In this document: positions 1-8,376 of the stretch, one piece after another | How the letters are laid out: every line of letters starts with the position of its first letter | Numbering within the stretch: the first letter of the stretch is position 1 | IMG/VR virus record: IMGVR_UViG_2671180444_000002 | Length of the DNA: 25,038 nucleotides | From: a virus | Taxonomy: Duplodnaviria; Heunggongvirae; Uroviricota; Caudoviricetes | Strand: one strand, 5' to 3' | Notes under the pieces: generated by a model | Seen by the model: the letters and a program-made list of their open reading frames with translations, nothing else | What the model was told of the DNA's origin: nothing | Databases searched by the model: none | Program-made: the position numbers and the translations under genes

Positions 1-83
1 AGGGACAGCTGATAGAAACAGAAGCCACTGGAGCACCTCAAAAACACCATCATACACTAAATCAGTAAGTTGGCAGCATCACC
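1..83 (-). mobile_element. IS1 terminal end (inverted repeat plus adjacent sequence); the rest of the element lies left of the window
   Basis: Reverse complement of 1-83 reads GGTGATGCTGCCAACTTACTGATTTAGTGTATGATGGTGTTTTTGAGGTGCTCCAGTGGCTTCTGTTTCTATCAGCTGTCCCT, which I recognise as the IS1 end. Match stops at 83. Confidence 0.75.
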
Positions 84-465
84 AGCCTTCTTGAGGCTAC
101 CACCTGTTTTCAGGTGTCATTCAGACGTGATTTGCCCCAGATTGGGAAAGCACGCTTTTTTCTCAGCTATCGTCCTCTTATTTTGCCGTTACATTTCTTT
201 TTGCATTCTAATGATTAATTTACAATAATAATATCGGTAATTATTGAGTAATAATAAATTAATTATTGCAAATGTAATTTAATTCCATCTTCGCGTTATA
301 TTCCAATCTTTAATCTCCGCATGGAACAAGTTGCATGCGTGACTATATTAAGACGACTTATAACCACCAAAACATTTGCTTTGCAAGCAAAAACAGTGAC
401 CATTGACTCTAAGAAAATTCCGATCTATTGTTAGGGTCATCAAAGTTACTTAACAGTATTCCGAA

Positions 466-567
466 ATGAAAATACAAAGCAAGCTAATTGTCTTATTAAA
501 CATTATTATTGCATTTATATTATTTGAGCTTTTAGCTCAAAAATTTGGTTTGAGTACATTATTTTAA
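466..567 (+). CDS. Hypothetical 33-aa hydrophobic peptide (MKIQSKLIVLLNIIIAFILFELLAQKFGLSTLF)
   Basis: ATG-to-TAA ORF in the AT-rich island; lysines at the N-terminus followed by a single predicted transmembrane stretch. No clear Shine-Dalgarno. Below the 60-aa cutoff of the ORF track. Confidence 0.2.
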   Translation: MKIQSKLIVLLNIIIAFILFELLAQKFGLSTLF

Positions 568-715
568 AGCAAGATAAACAATATCGGGCACTCTAGTTTT
601 TATAATTAACAATTAAACGTCCATAAAATGTTATTTACTTTTCTTCGCTATTGTCATATCTTAATATAGTGGCTTACGCCACTCTACTTTCATCACATTT
701 TGTACGTTTATGTAC

Positions 716-746
716 TCGCCATGAAGCTCTTTCATGGCGATTTTTT
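716..746 (+). terminator. Rho-independent terminator (9-10 bp stem, 5-nt loop, T6 tail)
   Basis: TCGCCATGAA-GCTCT-TTCATGGCGA followed by TTTTTT on the plus strand. Confidence 0.5.
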
Positions 747-832
747 ATTCTTAATCCAAGAACATACTCCCTACCTATAGCAAAATCACTTTTTTAACAA
801 AAGAATAACGTATTTAGGTAATCATTACGAAT

Positions 833-1429
833 TTACCCTATAGGTGCTACTGGCCATTCAATATCCGGTGCAGTTGATGTATCAACACGGTTCAGCAACA
901 CCCGATACTTTTTCCAAGCTTCCAGCAACAAGGTTTCTTTCTCCGTTGCGATCTCCAGATCCACAGCATCCTGAAGCGGCGCTATATGCTCACTGGCTAC
1001 CTGCATCAGGCTGTTTTTTGTTTCTTCCGCCTCCCGGATCCGGAACAGTTTTTCTGCTTCCGTATCCTTCACCCAGGCTGTGCCGTTCCACTTCTGAAAC
1101 NNNNNNNNNNNNNNNNNNNNNNNNNNNNNNNNNNNNNNNNNNNNNNNNNNNNNNNNNNNNNNNNNNNNNNNNNNNNNNNNNNNNNNNNNNNNNNNNNNNN
1201 NNNNNNNNNNNNNNNNNNNNNNNNNNNNNNNNNNNNNNNNNNNNNNNNNNNNNNNNNNNNNNNNNNNNNNNNNNNNNNNNNNNNNNNNNNNNNNNNNNNN
1301 NNNNNNNNNNNNNNNNNNNNNNNNNNNNNNNNNNNNNNNNNNNNNNNNNNNNNNNNNNNNNNNNNNNNNNNNNNNNNNNNNNNNNNNNNNTTTTATGGTC
1401 CGTGCTTGTTCACTCATTCTGAATGCCAT
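833..1429 (-). CDS. tfa: Tail fibre assembly protein Tfa; interior hidden by N-run
   Basis: N-terminus [13 protein letters not shown] and C-terminal half ([25 protein letters not shown]...) match lambda Tfa. Start overlaps the stf stop by 1 nt (TAATG). Confidence 0.9.
1101..1390. other. N-run (unsequenced or masked), inside tfa
   Basis: 290 consecutive n. Confidence 1.
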
Positions 1430-4400
1430 TATGCGAGCCTCACAATATAGTTAAATGCGATGTTTTTGACGGTGTTTTCCGCGTTACCAGCAGCGTTAAC
1501 GGTGATGGTGTGTCCATGTGAACCAATCGCAACAGAGTGCGTATGAGCACCAATACCGACAGTATGCGCGTGTGCACCCGCAGATGCTGCTGTGCCGGAC
1601 AGTGAGTGTGTATGGTTTCCTTCTGAAGATGATTTACCTACCCATTGGGAGGTGCCACTGGTTAATGAGCCACTGATACCAACCTGATTAGTCCCGCTAA
1701 CTTGAGTACTCCCTGCCGGAAACATTCCAGTAGGTTGACTCCCGCTATTCGTTCTGGGCCCAGTCTGACTATGTTGGTGGGCCCCAGCTGAACTTGTAGA
1801 GCCGCTCAGACTGTGCGTATGCGCCCCGGTGTTATTCGTGGATTTAGTGCCGTAATCAAACGACGATGTGGTTTTCGTCCCCAAATCCGTACTGGATGCG
1901 CTGGCGCTGTGGGTGTGCGATTTAATGCCATCCTGTTCCTGAGACAATACGGCACGACCACTGGCGGGCTTGCCCTTAATCGTCCAGCCACGCATATCAG
2001 GGATCACGCCTGACGGATAAGCGGCTGCAAGTTTCGGGTAAGCAGATTTGTCAAAAGTCTGCCCCTGCATCAGGGCATAACCAGACGGAACGGTATCTGA
2101 TGGCCACGGGATTGGTGCACCGACTGGATAAAACTCTGCAGGAGGATGAGCCGAGGTGTAAAGCTGCGCCCACGGCGACCAGTTTGCGTCGGTCGTATCC
2201 CGTCGTGAACGAATAAATGCCGGAGCATGAGCACCGCTTGTACCACTCCAGCCGATGAGTAACTCACCTTCGCCAACGGCTGTCATCCCTTTCAGGTGAA
2301 TGATATTTCCATACGCTGTTGGATATCCGTTGTTATACACCTCGTATAACTCAAGACCTGCTGCCCCCTGCGTATTGTCTGTCAGCGCGGCTACCCGACC
2401 TTTTGAAGCCAGATTAACTGATGATACTGCTGTTCCACCTGACGGTAGCGCCCCGATCTCTGATGCCGTTGGCTTATTTCTGGAGTTATAGTCCCTTCGC
2501 CAGCCAGGTGAATAATCTGTTCCGTGATTAATATAGGTAAACTGGGCGTTGGTTGTTCCGCCACCGCTGGATGTGGTCGGAGTGGTAATGCGGATCGTCA
2601 TCGCTGACTTTATCCCCATTACTTCAATGACAGCTCCGGCGAGATGAATATTACCGCAGCCAGTATCAGTAATGATTTTATTATTGCCATAAGACCAGGA
2701 ACCCTTGCACATCCAGTATGGATGGTTAAATGCTCCCTGAGAATCCAGCCACTCGATAAACTGTGCAGTCGTCCAGTTTCCTGTTGTTGTGCTTACTGAC
2801 CCACCGAAGGCACGGCAGGCACCAATATTTTTCGTAAAGGTGTCTTTGCCAGGGATATCCGCACCGTTCTGATCTTTCTGCAGACGTTTCTCAGCATTGT
2901 CATTGGCTGCTTTTACTGCCTTTGGCGTTGCCGCCAGCGTTTCAGACGTGCTGTTGGTCGCGCTGCTTAGCTGGATTATCCCTTTCTGTGCTGTCGTTGC
3001 ATCCTGTGCGGTGTATTTCCCGTTAGCCAGGTCATACGCGGCCTTAACGGCTTTTGGTGTTGCCGCCAGTGACTCGGAAGTGCTGTTAGTCGCACTACTG
3101 AGCTGTACTATCCCCTTTTTCGTCGTGCTCGCATCCTCAAGCGCCACGGCGGATGCAATATCCTCTGCCCGTTTTGCCGCTGTCTCAGCGCGCGTTGCTG
3201 CAGATTCCGCCGTACTTTTGCTCTGAGCTGCTGCCGTCGCACTACCAGCAGCCTCTGTCGCCTTCGTGGATGCCGTCGTGGCGCTGCCCTTCGCTGCTGA
3301 CGCCTGTCTGGTCGCCTCATCTTTTGAAGCAGACGCCGATGATGCCGATGACGCCGCCGAACTGGCGGACGATGCGGCAGCCGTTTTTGAGGATTCTGCA
3401 CGGGTTTCCGACGCTTTCGCGTTCGTTTCGGATGTCTTCGCTGCGGAAGCTGACCTCGCTGCTGCCGTGGCCTGCTCAGTGGCTTCGCCAGCCTTCGTTG
3501 TGGCTGTTGAAGCGGATGATGCGGCGCTTTCTGCCGATTTTCCGGCGGCGGTGGCACTGGCTGAGGCCTGCCCGGCACTTGTTGACGCGGCGCTGGCAGA
3601 CGACGCAGCCGCTGTTTTTGAGCCTGCCGCAGCTGAGGCACTCTGTCCCGCTGCCGTTTCAGAAGACCTGGCGTTCGTCTCGGACGTTTTGGCCGCCTTC
3701 GCAGAATTTGCAGCCGCCGTCGCCGAGGAAGCTGCGCTACTGGCGCTTGATGATGCGTTCGTTTCTGATGATTTTGCCGCCTCTTTTGAAGCCGACGCAT
3801 CCCGGGCTGAGGTGGCAGCTTCTGACGCTTTCGTGGTCGCGGTGGATGCAGAAGTGGCTGCTGATTGTTGTGACGCTGCCGCATTCGTTTCTAACGTTTT
3901 CGCCGCACCGGCACTGGTAGCCGCCGCGCTTTTTGAGGACTCTGCAGCGGCAGCACTTTTTGAGGCTTCAGTGGCCTTTGTTGATGCCGTTCCTGCGCTG
4001 GAAGACGCTGACTGAGCCGACGAAGCGGCCTGTCCGGCTGACGTGCTGGCTGCACGTGCTGAATCTGCAGCATCAGTCGCATGGGTTGCCGCCTCACGGG
4101 CTGATGTGCTGGCATCGCTGGCTGATTTCTTCGCGGCTGCCGTGTTCTGTGCCACCGCGGACGCGTTACGCGCCACCTCTTCCACCATCAGCTCAAAACG
4201 GCGCAGTGCCTCCGGACGGGCATCATCCTCCGTCATGGCACCGAGAAAATCATTCAGCGTACCGGGTCGGGAATCTTCATACACGGTGATGGTCCCGGCA
4301 TGTGACGGCGGGAATCCTTCCACCAACAGAATAACGCTGTACTGACCGTACTCAACGTCCATGCTGTAACGCCCGGCTTCATCCGGATTTTCTGAGGCCA

Positions 4401-4512
4401 GCGTGTTCACCACCACCGTGGTGCTGTTACGTTTTGCTTTCAGCTGGATTGTGCAGTTCTGTACCGGTTTTCCTGTGCCGTCTTTCAGTACACCTGAAAT
4501 CTTTACTGCCAT
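1429..4512 (-). CDS. stf: Side tail fibre protein Stf, long mosaic form (about 1027 aa)
   Basis: N-terminus [31 protein letters not shown] and C-terminus ...[31 protein letters not shown] match lambda Stf. The ORF track begins 6 nt upstream at a GTG; ATG at 4510-4512 gives the lambda-like start. Confidence 0.9.
2900..3130 (-). repeat. Tandem nucleotide repeat inside stf encoding two copies of the phage tail-fibre repeat motif
   Basis: Two near-identical units of about 90 nt encode [29 protein letters not shown] and [29 protein letters not shown]. Coordinates approximate. Confidence 0.6.
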
Positions 4513-4523
4513 ATTCACCCCAC

Positions 4524-4550
4524 AAAAAAGCCCGCCTGAACCGGCGGGCT
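4524..4550 (-). terminator. Rho-independent terminator between lom and stf
   Basis: Minus strand reads AGCCCGCC-GGTTCA-GGCGGGCT followed by TTTTTTG; lies 27 nt after the lom stop and 12 nt before the stf start. Confidence 0.6.
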
Positions 4551-4576
4551 GTCATAACACTGTGTTACCTGGCTAA

Positions 4577-4671
4577 TCAGAATTTATAACCGACACCCAC
4601 GATGAAACCGTCAGTGCGCCAGAGACGTGTTGCTGTGGCGACCGTCATCACTTCCGGTCAGCACATCGTGC
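4577..4671 (-). CDS. lom: Outer-membrane beta-barrel protein Lom (Ail/OmpX family), 3' end only; rest hidden in N-run
   Basis: Minus-strand translation ends ...WRTDGFIVGVGYKF*, matching the lambda Lom C-terminus and the aromatic-x-aromatic ending typical of beta-barrels. Stop codon at 4577-4579. Confidence 0.7.
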
Positions 4672-4884
4672 NNNNNNNNNNNNNNNNNNNNNNNNNNNNN
4701 NNNNNNNNNNNNNNNNNNNNNNNNNNNNNNNNNNNNNNNNNNNNNNNNNNNNNNNNNNNNNNNNNNNNNNNNNNNNNNNNNNNNNNNNNNNNNNNNNNNN
4801 NNNNNNNNNNNNNNNNNNNNNNNNNNNNNNNNNNNNNNNNNNNNNNNNNNNNNNNNNNNNNNNNNNNNNNNNNNNNNNNNNNNN
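4672..4884. other. N-run covering the J stop, the J-lom spacer and most of lom
   Basis: 213 consecutive n. Confidence 1.
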
Positions 4885-7800
4885 TACTGATGCCGGAAGC
4901 CGCTTTTTTGGTCACAATCACCGTACAGTCGGTGATATTGCCTGCCCCCTGATTGCCTTTCTGGAAAATCTTAAACTCCAGAGTGACGCTACCACCACCA
5001 CTAGGCATATCAATAACTGCACTGTAACTACCGGGAATGGCACCTTTAGTTTCTCTGGATGCGATTAATACGCCGTTTTTGCGAACTTCAAAACCATAAC
5101 CCGTGTATCGCGTGCCTCCTGGGTTATTTCCGCTCCCCGGATCGTCATACGCTATACCGTTAAAAATAATGGGCGGAATAATAATCTGGCGGTCAAAGTT
5201 ATGATCATCGCTTATGGTGACTGTAACCGTCCCGTTTGGTGTTTCCGTGTTACCCCACGTACCAGCCTGTTTCGGAAATGATTTGGATACAGCTTTAACG
5301 AAGTCACCTCTGACCTGAGTCGCCTCCAGCATGCCCTTAATCGTACAGTTTTCATTTACCGTGACATTGTTGAGCGTCCCGGCGTTCGCATTCACACTGC
5401 CACTGATATCCGCATTTTTAGCGGTCAGCTTTCCGTCCGGAGTCAGGGAAAATGCCGATGGATTTCCACCGCTGGTAATGGTGGGGGCCGTCAGGCGTTT
5501 CAGGAACACGTCGTTCATGAATATCTGATCGCCCTGACCAACAAACATCGGTTTTGTGTTGCCATTCGCAGGATTAACCATCGCAATCCTGTCCGCCGCC
5601 AGCAGCACCTGACTCTGCATGCCGTCAGGGGTGTTCTCAATACCGGCACCAATACCCGCGATATAAAGGCGTCCGTCCTGCATCTGCTGCAGCTTCACAG
5701 CCCACATGCTGTTCAGGTTATTATTTGTATCAACCTGAACCTTCTGTATCTGCTGAATTGCCGCACTCTGGTCTTCCAGTTTCTTATTGACGGTCTGCGT
5801 GATTTCATTGCTGACATCCGTAATGGACGTCCTGATTTCAGCCAGGTCAGGCGCAAGCTGACCGTTATCAATCTGCGTCCACAGCTCCTGAGCCAGATGG
5901 GTTTTCCCTATCTCGCCTTTGAAAAAATCCAGATAACCGGATGCATCATCACTCGGCTGACCAACAGCCTCCACGAATGCCGATTTGCCAACGGTGTTCA
6001 CACTGCGGATATAAAAGTAATAATCATGGCCCGGTTTGATATTGATACTGGCGGCTATCCAGTACAGCGCCGTGCCAAGATAGCGTGCTGTGGTTTCAAC
6101 CTGCCTGATATCCGCAATCCGCTTTTCCGAGAACCAGAACTCAAACTGTACCGTCGGATCATAAACCGCAAGATGCGGCGTGGCGGTTATCTGAAAATAG
6201 CCCGGCGTCAGCTCAATCCGCGACAGCGCTGCCGGTGCGGCAATCCGGAACGATACCGACGCCGGATCGCCCTGCTGCCCCCACGCATTTACTGCCCGGA
6301 CTGTCAGCCTGTAGTTCCCCAGCGCCAGTTGTGTGAAGCGGTAAGTGGTTTCCGTCGTCCGGGCCGTGCTGACCAGCCGCTCACTGCCGTCATCCGCTGT
6401 TACGGTCAGACGGAGCAGGAAGCTCACGCCCTTCACCACCTTCGGCGTGTCCCAGCGCGCCAGCACCTGATATTCCCCGCTGTCTGCGGTGACTTCGGCA
6501 GTCAGGTGCTGCACCGCTGGCGGCGTGACACCATTCACCGTGCCGCTCTGGTCGCCGTCAAAGTGCGCCCCGTTATCCACGATGGCTTCTTTTTCCGGCA
6601 CATGCTGCACGGCGGTGATGGCATACGTGCCGTCGTCGTTCTCACGGATACTCACGCAGCGGAACAATCGCTGGTGCAGCGTCGGCAGCTTCAGCCCCCA
6701 CACGCTGTATTCAGCAACACCGTCAGGAACACGGCTCACTTTTACCTTCACGCCGTCGGTGACGGACTGGACCTCCACGCTGACCGGATTCCCCTGCCCG
6801 TCAACCAGGCTTATCAGCGTGGTGCCGGAGGATGGCAGCGTGATTTCACGGTCGAGCGTCAGCGTCCGGGTCTGGCTGTTCACCGCCAGCACGCGCCCGC
6901 CGGTGCGGATACCGGCATAGTCATCATCGCAGATTTCAATGACATCGCCCGGTACATGACGAAGCCCTTCAGCACCCACGCTGAAATCCACGGTCTGCGT
7001 CTCCAGCAGTTCCGTTTTAATCAGCCACAGCCCGGCGCGGTGTGCCTGCCCCCGGCTGGTACAGCCAAAGGCATCCATCTTCGTGACGTTACGACCGTAA
7101 CGGACAATGGCCTGCGTATCCTCCACAAGCTCTGTCGCCGTCTCCCAGCCGTTATCCGGGTCAATCCAGTTCACCTCAACGGCATTATGGCGGTCTTTCA
7201 GGGCGCTGAAACTGTAGCGGAACGGCGCGCCATCATCCGGCATCACCACATTACTGCGGTTATAGGCCCACACCTTATCCGACTGTCGGTCCTGCACGAA
7301 CGTCAGCGTCTGCCCGTTCCATACCGGCATACAGCGCATCGCCGAGCAGAAATCACTGAGCACATCCCACGCCTTGCGCTGTGTGGTCAGCCAGGCATTA
7401 CAGGTGATGCGCGGCTCCGTGCTGCCAAAGCCGTCCGGCACCGACTGGTCACAGTACTGGCCGATGACATACAGCGCCCATTTATCCACATCTGCCGCAC
7501 CAAGACGTTTCCCCATGCCATAGCGCGGATGGGTCAGCATATCCCACAGACACCAGGCCATGTTGTTGCTGTATGCCGGTTTTAACGTTCCGTCCCAGAT
7601 ACCGCTGTATTGCCGCGTCTGCGGATTATAGTTCGACGGCACCTGCAGAATGCGCCCGCGAAGATGATAATTACGGCTCACCTGCTGGCTGCCGAACTGC
7701 TCCGAATCCACCTGTACGCCGACCAGTGCCGTGTTCGGGTAGCACTGTTTCACATCGATGATTTCGGTGTATGACGACCAGAGCGTTTTGTTCTGCAGCT

Positions 7801-8376
7801 GGTCTGTGGTGCTGTCCGGCGTCATTCTGCGCATCCGGATATTAAACGGGCGCGGCGGCAGGTTATCCACCACCACCGAGGCCAGATACTGCGAGGTGGT
7901 TTTGCCCTTAATGGTGATGTCTTTTTCCGTCACCCAGCCACCGTTACGCTGTATCTGAACCAGCAGGCGAACTTCAGACGGATTCCTGTCTCCCTTTGAG
8001 GTGGTTNNNNNNNNNNNNNNNNNNNNNNNNNNNNNNNNNNNNNNNNNNNNNNNNNNNNNNNNNNNNNNNNNNNNNNNNNNNNNNNNNNNNNNNNNNNNNN
8101 NNNNNNNNNNNNNNNNNNNNNNNNNNNNNNNNNNNNNNNNNNNNNNNNNNNNNNNNNNNNNNNNNNNNNNNNNNNNNNNNNNNNNNNNNNNNNNNNNNNN
8201 NNNNNNNNNNNNNNNNNNNNNNNNNNNNNNNNNNNNNNNNNNNNNNNNNNNNNNNNATCCACCGGACCTTCAACCGGCCCTTCGCTGATGGCATCGATCA
8301 CACTCAGCAGCTGCGTGGACTTCAGGTTGTCCTTCGCTTCGCGCGGGGTATGCCCCTTACTGCTGCCTTTACCCAT
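4885..8376 (-). CDS. J: Tail tip / host specificity protein J (central fibre); two N-runs interrupt it and the 3' end is inside the 4672-4884 gap
   Basis: N-terminus [34 protein letters not shown] at 8376; body ([20 protein letters not shown]... through ...[13 protein letters not shown]) matches lambda J. ORF-track entries 7930-8376 and 4658-7933 are the same gene split by a gap whose length is not a multiple of 3. Confidence 0.9.
8007..8256. other. N-run inside the J N-terminal region
   Basis: 250 consecutive n; reading frame before and after differs by one position. Confidence 1.

Follow-up and report, generated by a model that had tools for sequence, protein, structure and literature searches.

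The side tail fibre gene stf was analysed in a 25,038-nucleotide (nt) stretch of DNA from a tailed virus (Caudoviricetes; IMG/VR record IMGVR_UViG_2671180444_000002). This stretch, referred to here as the window, corresponds to the late (morphogenesis) genes of a prophage of the lambda type, read on the minus strand, and is approximately 96% identical over approximately 90% of its length to the isolated lambdoid phages PhiR42_1, PhiR26_1, mEp332, Kati and ev099. Its fibre protein, Stf, is a mosaic variant of the lambda side tail fibre that is common in E. coli. The middle of the lambda protein has been replaced, and not simply interrupted by an insertion, with two further length differences in the rod and in a second fibre repeat. 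The replacing segment looks to be two independent, portable, beta-rich modules, here called A and B, that are freely shuffled among phage fibres. These modules are probably structural knobs of the fibre shaft, and the receptor would be read by the distal tip.

Domain order of the side tail fibre

The stf open reading frame (ORF) is intact, with an in-frame GTG at 4518 as an alternative start (ORF 1429-4518), and its product matches the PHROG 295 tail fiber family (E-value 3e-244). The gene lies in the order J - lom - stf - tfa, as in the matching lambdoid phages. The following features were assigned, with residues numbered from the ATG in amino acids (aa):

1429..4512, minus strand: stf, side tail fibre gene, 1027 aa from the ATG at 4512 (MAVKISG...), stop at 1429-1431, from the ORF list
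4111..4512, minus strand: aa 1-134, N-terminal virion-attachment domain, lambda-like (Pfam phage_tail_N PF08400, E-value 1.4e-71)
3148..4110, minus strand: aa 135-455, Ala/Ser-rich repetitive rod, from alignment with Ur-lambda Stf and internal repeat matches in tblastn
2884..3129, minus strand: aa 462-543, two Phage_fiber_2 repeats (Pfam PF03406, two stretches, E-value 6e-37)
2443..2883, minus strand: aa 544-690, module A, Cys-containing knob of the Mu S' / P2 H / P1 Sv' type
2131..2442, minus strand: aa 691-794, module B, beta-rich knob with a FIRSRRD motif, 64% identity to P1 Sv' 47-153
1432..2130, minus strand: aa 795-1027, collar, His-x-His needle and distal tip of the lambda Stf / T4 gp37 type
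833..1429, minus strand: tfa, tail fibre assembly chaperone gene, 198 aa, ORF directly downstream of stf, its middle masked by N at 1101-1390

Both ends of the protein are those of a lambdoid Stf. The PF08400 domain at residues 1-134 also matches a solved 94-residue tail-fibre chain (9E7M, E-value 1e-51), while at the other end the Pfam Collar domain (PF07484) lies at aa 798-845 and the T4 gp37 tip structure 2XGF was matched over aa 794-1027 (E-value 1e-81). The part between aa 135 and 455 may form a coiled-coil rod, to judge from its composition only. The tfa product is annotated as a tail fiber assembly protein in the matching genomes and phages.

Comparison with the lambda side tail fibre

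Ur-lambda Stf (774 aa) was rebuilt from orf-401 and orf-314 of NC_001416 and compared with the window Stf by tblastn, global alignment and BLASTP. A first-pass annotation made from the letters of the window had given lengths of about 1027 and 774 aa for the two proteins, both of which were correct, and had described the N-terminal attachment part and the His-rich C-terminal tip as lambda-like. This description was borne out, with aa 1-303 colinear with lambda 1-303 and aa 795-1027 aligning to lambda 531-774 at 70% identity. Between these parts, aa 304-408 (window 3291-3605) are approximately 105 extra Ala/Ser-rich rod residues that face a gap in lambda in the global alignment, and aa 409 to approximately 500 match lambda 304-395, including one Phage_fiber_2 repeat. 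Colinearity with lambda stops at approximately aa 500, and the window Stf then carries a second Phage_fiber_2 repeat (aa 503-543) where lambda has one in all. The longer rod was seen to arise through extra copies of internal repeats, and rod length varies among relatives, whose Stf proteins measure 983 to 1025 aa.

The same annotation had singled out positions 2134-2853, which correspond to aa 554-793 and include a peptide quoted there, as a middle segment missing from lambda Stf. BLASTP of aa 501-800 against lambda Stf returned the fibre repeat only (E-value 2e-13), with no other match with an E-value below 2, and the middle is therefore absent from canonical lambda; alignment likewise revealed no colinear lambda counterpart for aa ~500-794. 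Lambda 396-530 (approximately 135 aa) in turn has no counterpart in the window Stf, and approximately 251 aa (544-794) stand in its place together with the second repeat. The excess of 253 aa over lambda also includes the rod residues and the second repeat. What had been called an inserted domain is thus a foreign module of the kind expected from tail-fibre mosaicism, but it would be better described as a swap for lambda's own middle, and it consists of two modules instead of one.

Module A

The identity of module A was established by its homology to a solved knob domain. A phmmer search aligned query residues 6-189 with residues 179-362 of PDB entry 8JU3 (domain E-value 1e-70), an entry for the G(-) tail fibre S' (gp52) of Mu (Mori et al. 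2024, Virology 593:110017, as cited in PMC11821841), and module A has the same fold as this Mu S' / P2 H / P1 S' knob domain. Its identity to the beginning of the variable part of D108 S' is 73%, and to P1 Sv' 215-358 it is 82%; residues 180-483 of P2-type H align with aa 384-687 at 68.5% identity. Homologies of the segment outside lambda reach E-values of 1e-70 and better, far beyond chance. In an AlphaFold2 model covering aa 540-800 as a single chain, the core of module A was predicted as one helix packed against a beta-sheet, with predicted local distance difference test (pLDDT) scores of 82-91. A search of a viral model library gave five hits with E-values of 1e-3 or lower, namely four named phage fibre proteins, from Shewanella phages, a crAss-like virus and Goslar, and one unnamed entry. 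Neither fold nor sequence similarity to a lectin or a carbohydrate-binding module (CBM) was detected, the predicted fold matching Mu fibre 8JU3 and other phage fibres only.

Stf has cysteines at positions 20, 566, 602 and 619. The first-pass annotation was right to call the segment Cys-containing, as three of the four lie in it, but all three (566, 602 and 619) belong to module A, at what are likely buried core positions. Cys602 and Cys619 are kept in most relatives; some replace Cys602 alone (by A, S, Y, V or F), and others replace the two together (Cys602/Cys619 as M/V, V/L, G/F, M/I or T/L), while many have A, G, S or P in place of Cys566. Such substitutions, with hydrophobic residues standing in for Cys602, Cys619 or both, make a functional disulfide or metal site unlikely. 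The cysteines of module A are most likely buried core residues, with no obligatory disulfide or metal-binding role.

Module B

In addition to its identity to P1 Sv', module B has a counterpart in the Qin prophage of E. coli K-12, whose stfQ remnant matches the final 257 nt of the module at 100% identity. Module B is also present in Gifsy-2 Stf, in the jumbo phage Goslar and in a group of Vibrio phages. With these matches, the search for fibres of the donor type that had been proposed in the first-pass annotation led to Mu/D108 S', P2-type H, P1 Sv', Qin StfQ and Gifsy-2 Stf.

The pLDDT of module B was 56-72 in context and averaged 52 when the module was folded alone from a 14-sequence alignment, a level too low to search with the fold. 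A search for homologous proteins with a 111-aa module B query yielded fragments no longer than 195 aa. The Pfam gp37_C family (PF12604) gave no hit on the window protein at an E-value of 0.1 or lower, whereas the corresponding second domain of Mu/D108 S' does match it (24.8 bits against a cut-off of 22.5). Alignment of module B with this gp37_C-type Mu domain by hhalign gave a probability of 93% and an E-value of 3.5e-7, over 33 C-terminal columns only, and the C-terminal motif RSxRD...W...YT is all that the two have in common. Module A against the second Mu domain reached 62% over 33 columns, which is not convincing, and the idea that A and B are diverged copies of one domain was rejected at an hhalign probability of 1.4%.

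Module shuffling and distribution

In P1 Sv' module B precedes module A, the reverse of their order in the window Stf. An exhaustive HMMER search found 1028 representative clusters at an E-value of 1e-3 or lower, 711 of them at 1e-10 or lower, and architectures were tallied for the best 150 representative proteins. Module A stands by itself in 101 of the 150 and module B in 16; a further 16 have the order BA and 11 the order AB, and the remainder are BAA (3), AA (2) and ABB (1). These 150 proteins range from 92 to 3594 aa, with a median of 183.5 residues beyond the last module, so that the modules are internal in nearly all of them, and close homologues bear at least three C-terminal Pfam types (Collar, gp37_C and PF12571). 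The H protein of one P2-like prophage (710 aa) aligns with aa 460-1027 at 76% identity; the side fibre of a siphovirus and the baseplate fibre of a myovirus therefore have the entire distal half in common as a cassette. Of 5426 complete E. coli genomes, 800 (approximately 15%) contained 80% or more of the 720-nt segment, mostly at 95% identity or more.

The non-lambda stretch starts at the second Phage_fiber_2 repeat, which is also the likely recombination joint. The similarity to P2-type H spans the fibre-repeat region in both alignments (aa 384-687 and aa 460-1027). A functional lambda-P2 Stf chimera has been built with its joint at lambda R393 (Brodel et al. 2024, PMC11338833), and the natural joint at the Phage_fiber_2 repeat coincides with this engineered fusion point.

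All of this is tail-fibre mosaicism of a known kind: isolated phages have near-identical proteins that bear the annotation side tail fibre, and a structure of the module A domain has been solved. Mosaicism among lambda Stf, P2 H, Mu S/S', P1 S and T4 gp37 was reportedly described as early as the beginning of the 1990s, in 1992, by Haggard-Ljungquist and by Sandmeier and their respective co-workers. Literature searches on Stf diversity in the PhiR/mEp lambdoid collection found nothing specific. Base composition along stf gave no usable sign of foreign origin, being dominated by GC-rich Ala/Ser codons and by the N runs. The outcome is a precise map of the modules in a side tail fibre that is very common among E. 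coli prophages, and it matters little beyond annotation.

Where receptor specificity may lie

Compared with PhiR42_1 Stf, the window protein has 3 differences in aa 551-800, and 40 of 67 in aa 901-1000. Mean pairwise differences per site were calculated for nine lambdoid Stf proteins, all chosen for carrying A-B, and amounted to 0.010 in module A and 0.020 in module B, values that are partly built in, since resemblance to the A-B segment was what had brought these loci into the sample. The N-terminal domain gave 0.037, aa 891-1000 gave 0.365 and aa 901-950 gave 0.586, and the contrast between the tip and these other regions is not affected by the ascertainment in the same way. The hypervariable stretch sits between two His-x-His arrays, within the region matching the T4 gp37 tip (2XGF), at the site of what is reported to be the distal receptor-binding head in that structure (Bartual et al. 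2010). Residues ~900-1000 are the probable receptor-reading part of the fibre, and this region, rather than the Cys-containing middle, is the one to watch for host-range differences.

Role of the two modules

The most probable reading, and one held with some confidence, is that A and B are structural shaft knobs of a mosaic lambdoid side tail fibre. The gene would have arisen by recombination at the conserved fibre repeats, which joined a lambda-type proximal half to a P2/Mu-type distal cassette. In the resulting trimeric fibre the N-terminal domain would anchor on the tail tip and the Ala/Ser-rich part would serve as the rod, while the fibre repeats and the two knobs would make up a beta-structured distal shaft. 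The knobs may keep the trimer in register and determine how long the fibre is and what geometry it has, travelling with whichever tip has recombined, and the receptor would be read by the collar, needle and tip, including the hypervariable aa ~900-1000, folded with the help of Tfa. Several points weigh against assigning the modules to the shaft. The model of module B is of low confidence, which makes its fold tentative, and the near-invariance of A and B is inflated by the ascertainment described above. The trimeric state is proposed by analogy with the family, the prediction being of a single chain, and the coiled-coil rod is likewise a proposal. Module A also lies within the part of the fibre that varies with host range in Mu, P1 and P2, as in the invertible Sv' segments.

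This last point also speaks for the suggestion, made in the first-pass annotation, that the segment is an extra receptor- or carbohydrate-binding domain. On that account A, B or both would bind on the side of the fibre, with, for example, lipopolysaccharide (LPS) core or O-antigen contacted through A-B and a porin through the tip. In both Mu/D108 S' and P1 Sv', the C-terminal segment that contains module A is variable and associated with host range. Residues ~565-580 of module A, between the conserved G564 and T581, are poorly conserved and partly of low model confidence, and could form a loop at the surface. For Ur-lambda Stf, an interaction with the O16 O-antigen as well as with OmpC has been suggested (PMC11990801), so the proposal that one Stf may have several binding activities already exists. 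The suggestion nevertheless fared poorly here: the fold matches phage fibres only and no lectin or CBM, the modules are nearly always internal, occur in either order and are near-invariant among lambdoid Stf proteins with a hypervariable tip, homologues carry several C-terminal Pfam types, and the cysteines are replaced by hydrophobic residues in relatives. We consider an additional binding domain unlikely, and its more specific form, in which the A-B pair is a second, lateral site (for LPS core or O-antigen, for instance) inherited from LPS-binding fibres of the Mu S'/P2 type, quite unlikely. If it were true, the shaft of Stf would recognise a glycan and the tip a porin, and the A-B cassette would owe its spread to a generic first-contact function. 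Glycan binding by A-B would bear on how lambdoid phages pass the O-antigen; nothing in the present analysis supports it.

It is also improbable, to a degree that leaves it little weight, that the modules, instead of being simple spacers, serve mainly to nucleate folding or trimerisation and so align the three chains during assembly, like the C-terminal trimerisation domain of T4 gp34. A weak Pfam Gp34_trimer (PF21446) match spans the A-B junction (aa 654-713, E-value 0.058), the same family appears in precomputed annotations of many close homologues, and T4 gp34 structures are among the weak Foldseek hits. However, at 14.3 bits the match falls short of the Pfam gathering cut-off of 27, the gp34 structures were hit without significance (E-values of 0.16 or worse), and a dedicated chaperone, Tfa, acts on the C-terminal tip. 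As for the middle being an artefact, whether through chimeric assembly or through pseudogene decay in a cryptic prophage, so that a working fibre of this form would not exist, the three N-masked runs of the window and the damaged lom beside stf could invite such an explanation, but the 1027-aa ORF is intact, hundreds of complete genomes carry the same architecture, and so do lambdoid phages that were isolated and form plaques, PhiR42_1 among them. Because these phages have intact homologues, the explanation is refuted, and its likelihood is negligible.

Neighbourhood of stf

Three N runs totalling 753 bases, at 1101-1390, 4672-4884 and 8007-8256, mask parts of tfa, of the end of J and lom, and of another tail gene; as a result, the ORF listing fuses J with downstream sequence into a false 1091-aa ORF (4658-7933). 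The lom gene, at approximately 4577-4671 on the minus strand, looks like a remnant. Its visible part matches PhiR42_1 lom, and a 77-nt internal deletion near the 3' end shifts the frame, so that the read stops after ...NTSLAH and the Lom C-terminus GFIVGVGYKF* now sits in another frame. Nor would the remainder of a 600-nt lom, together with the end of J, fit into the 213 masked bases. Between the lom remnant and the start of stf, at approximately 4524-4549 on the minus strand, lies a putative intrinsic terminator, formed by a GC-rich hairpin and the T run behind it (agcccgccggttcaggcgggctttttt).

Downstream of tfa, window positions 1-832 are AT-rich (GC 0.31-0.37) and contain no ORF of 60 aa or more. 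Related prophages and phages (loci L002, L007 and L013) have a pinQ/pinR-type invertase gene at this place, which the window lacks. Other genes adjoin stf and tfa elsewhere. In E. coli ST131 strain 4993 (locus L006) a gene for a macro domain-containing protein lies between stf and tfa (3965-4867) and a reverse-transcriptase domain gene follows tfa; a 'macro domain' annotation was also found under hit H55. In E. coli 82.0312 (locus L010) a gene for a SMODS-domain nucleotidyltransferase, resembling those of cyclic oligonucleotide-based antiphage signalling systems (CBASS), lies just past tfa at the prophage end (5284-5920), which suggests that variable defence cargo adjoins the fibre genes.

Comparison with known fibres

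The closest relatives of the window Stf are PhiR42_1 Stf (PV340562) and the fibres of many E. coli prophages, which share its gene position (J - lom - stf - tfa) and domain order. PhiR42_1 Stf is 93.5% identical over the full length and 98.8% identical over the 240-aa segment, and differs almost only in the distal tip. Ur-lambda Stf has the same attachment domain, Ala/Ser-rich rod, Phage_fiber_2 repeat, collar, His-x-His tip and downstream Tfa, but it has its own middle of approximately 135 aa (396-530), a rod shorter by approximately 105 aa and a single fibre repeat.

Among the myovirus fibres, Mu / D108 G(-) S' shares module A with the window Stf. S' is a baseplate fibre, and the segment that encodes it is invertible. 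Its second domain belongs to Pfam gp37_C, and where the window Stf has the collar, needle and tip, S' closes with a short distal domain of its own. P2-type H resembles the window Stf over aa 384-687 (68.5%), and in one P2-like prophage over aa 460-1027 (76%), but carries the N-terminal baseplate-attachment domain PF12571. The variable part Sv' of the P1 / P7 fibre S has both modules (A at 82% and B at 64%), with B at 47-153, A at 215-358 and other sequence between and after them, in a segment that is invertible by Cin. The chimera of Brodel et al. (PMC11338833), in which lambda Stf 1-393 is followed just after the fibre repeat by the distal part of P2 H, has essentially the same joint as the window Stf, but it is man-made and ends in the LPS-binding tip of P2, whereas the window Stf ends in a tip of the lambda/T4 gp37 type.
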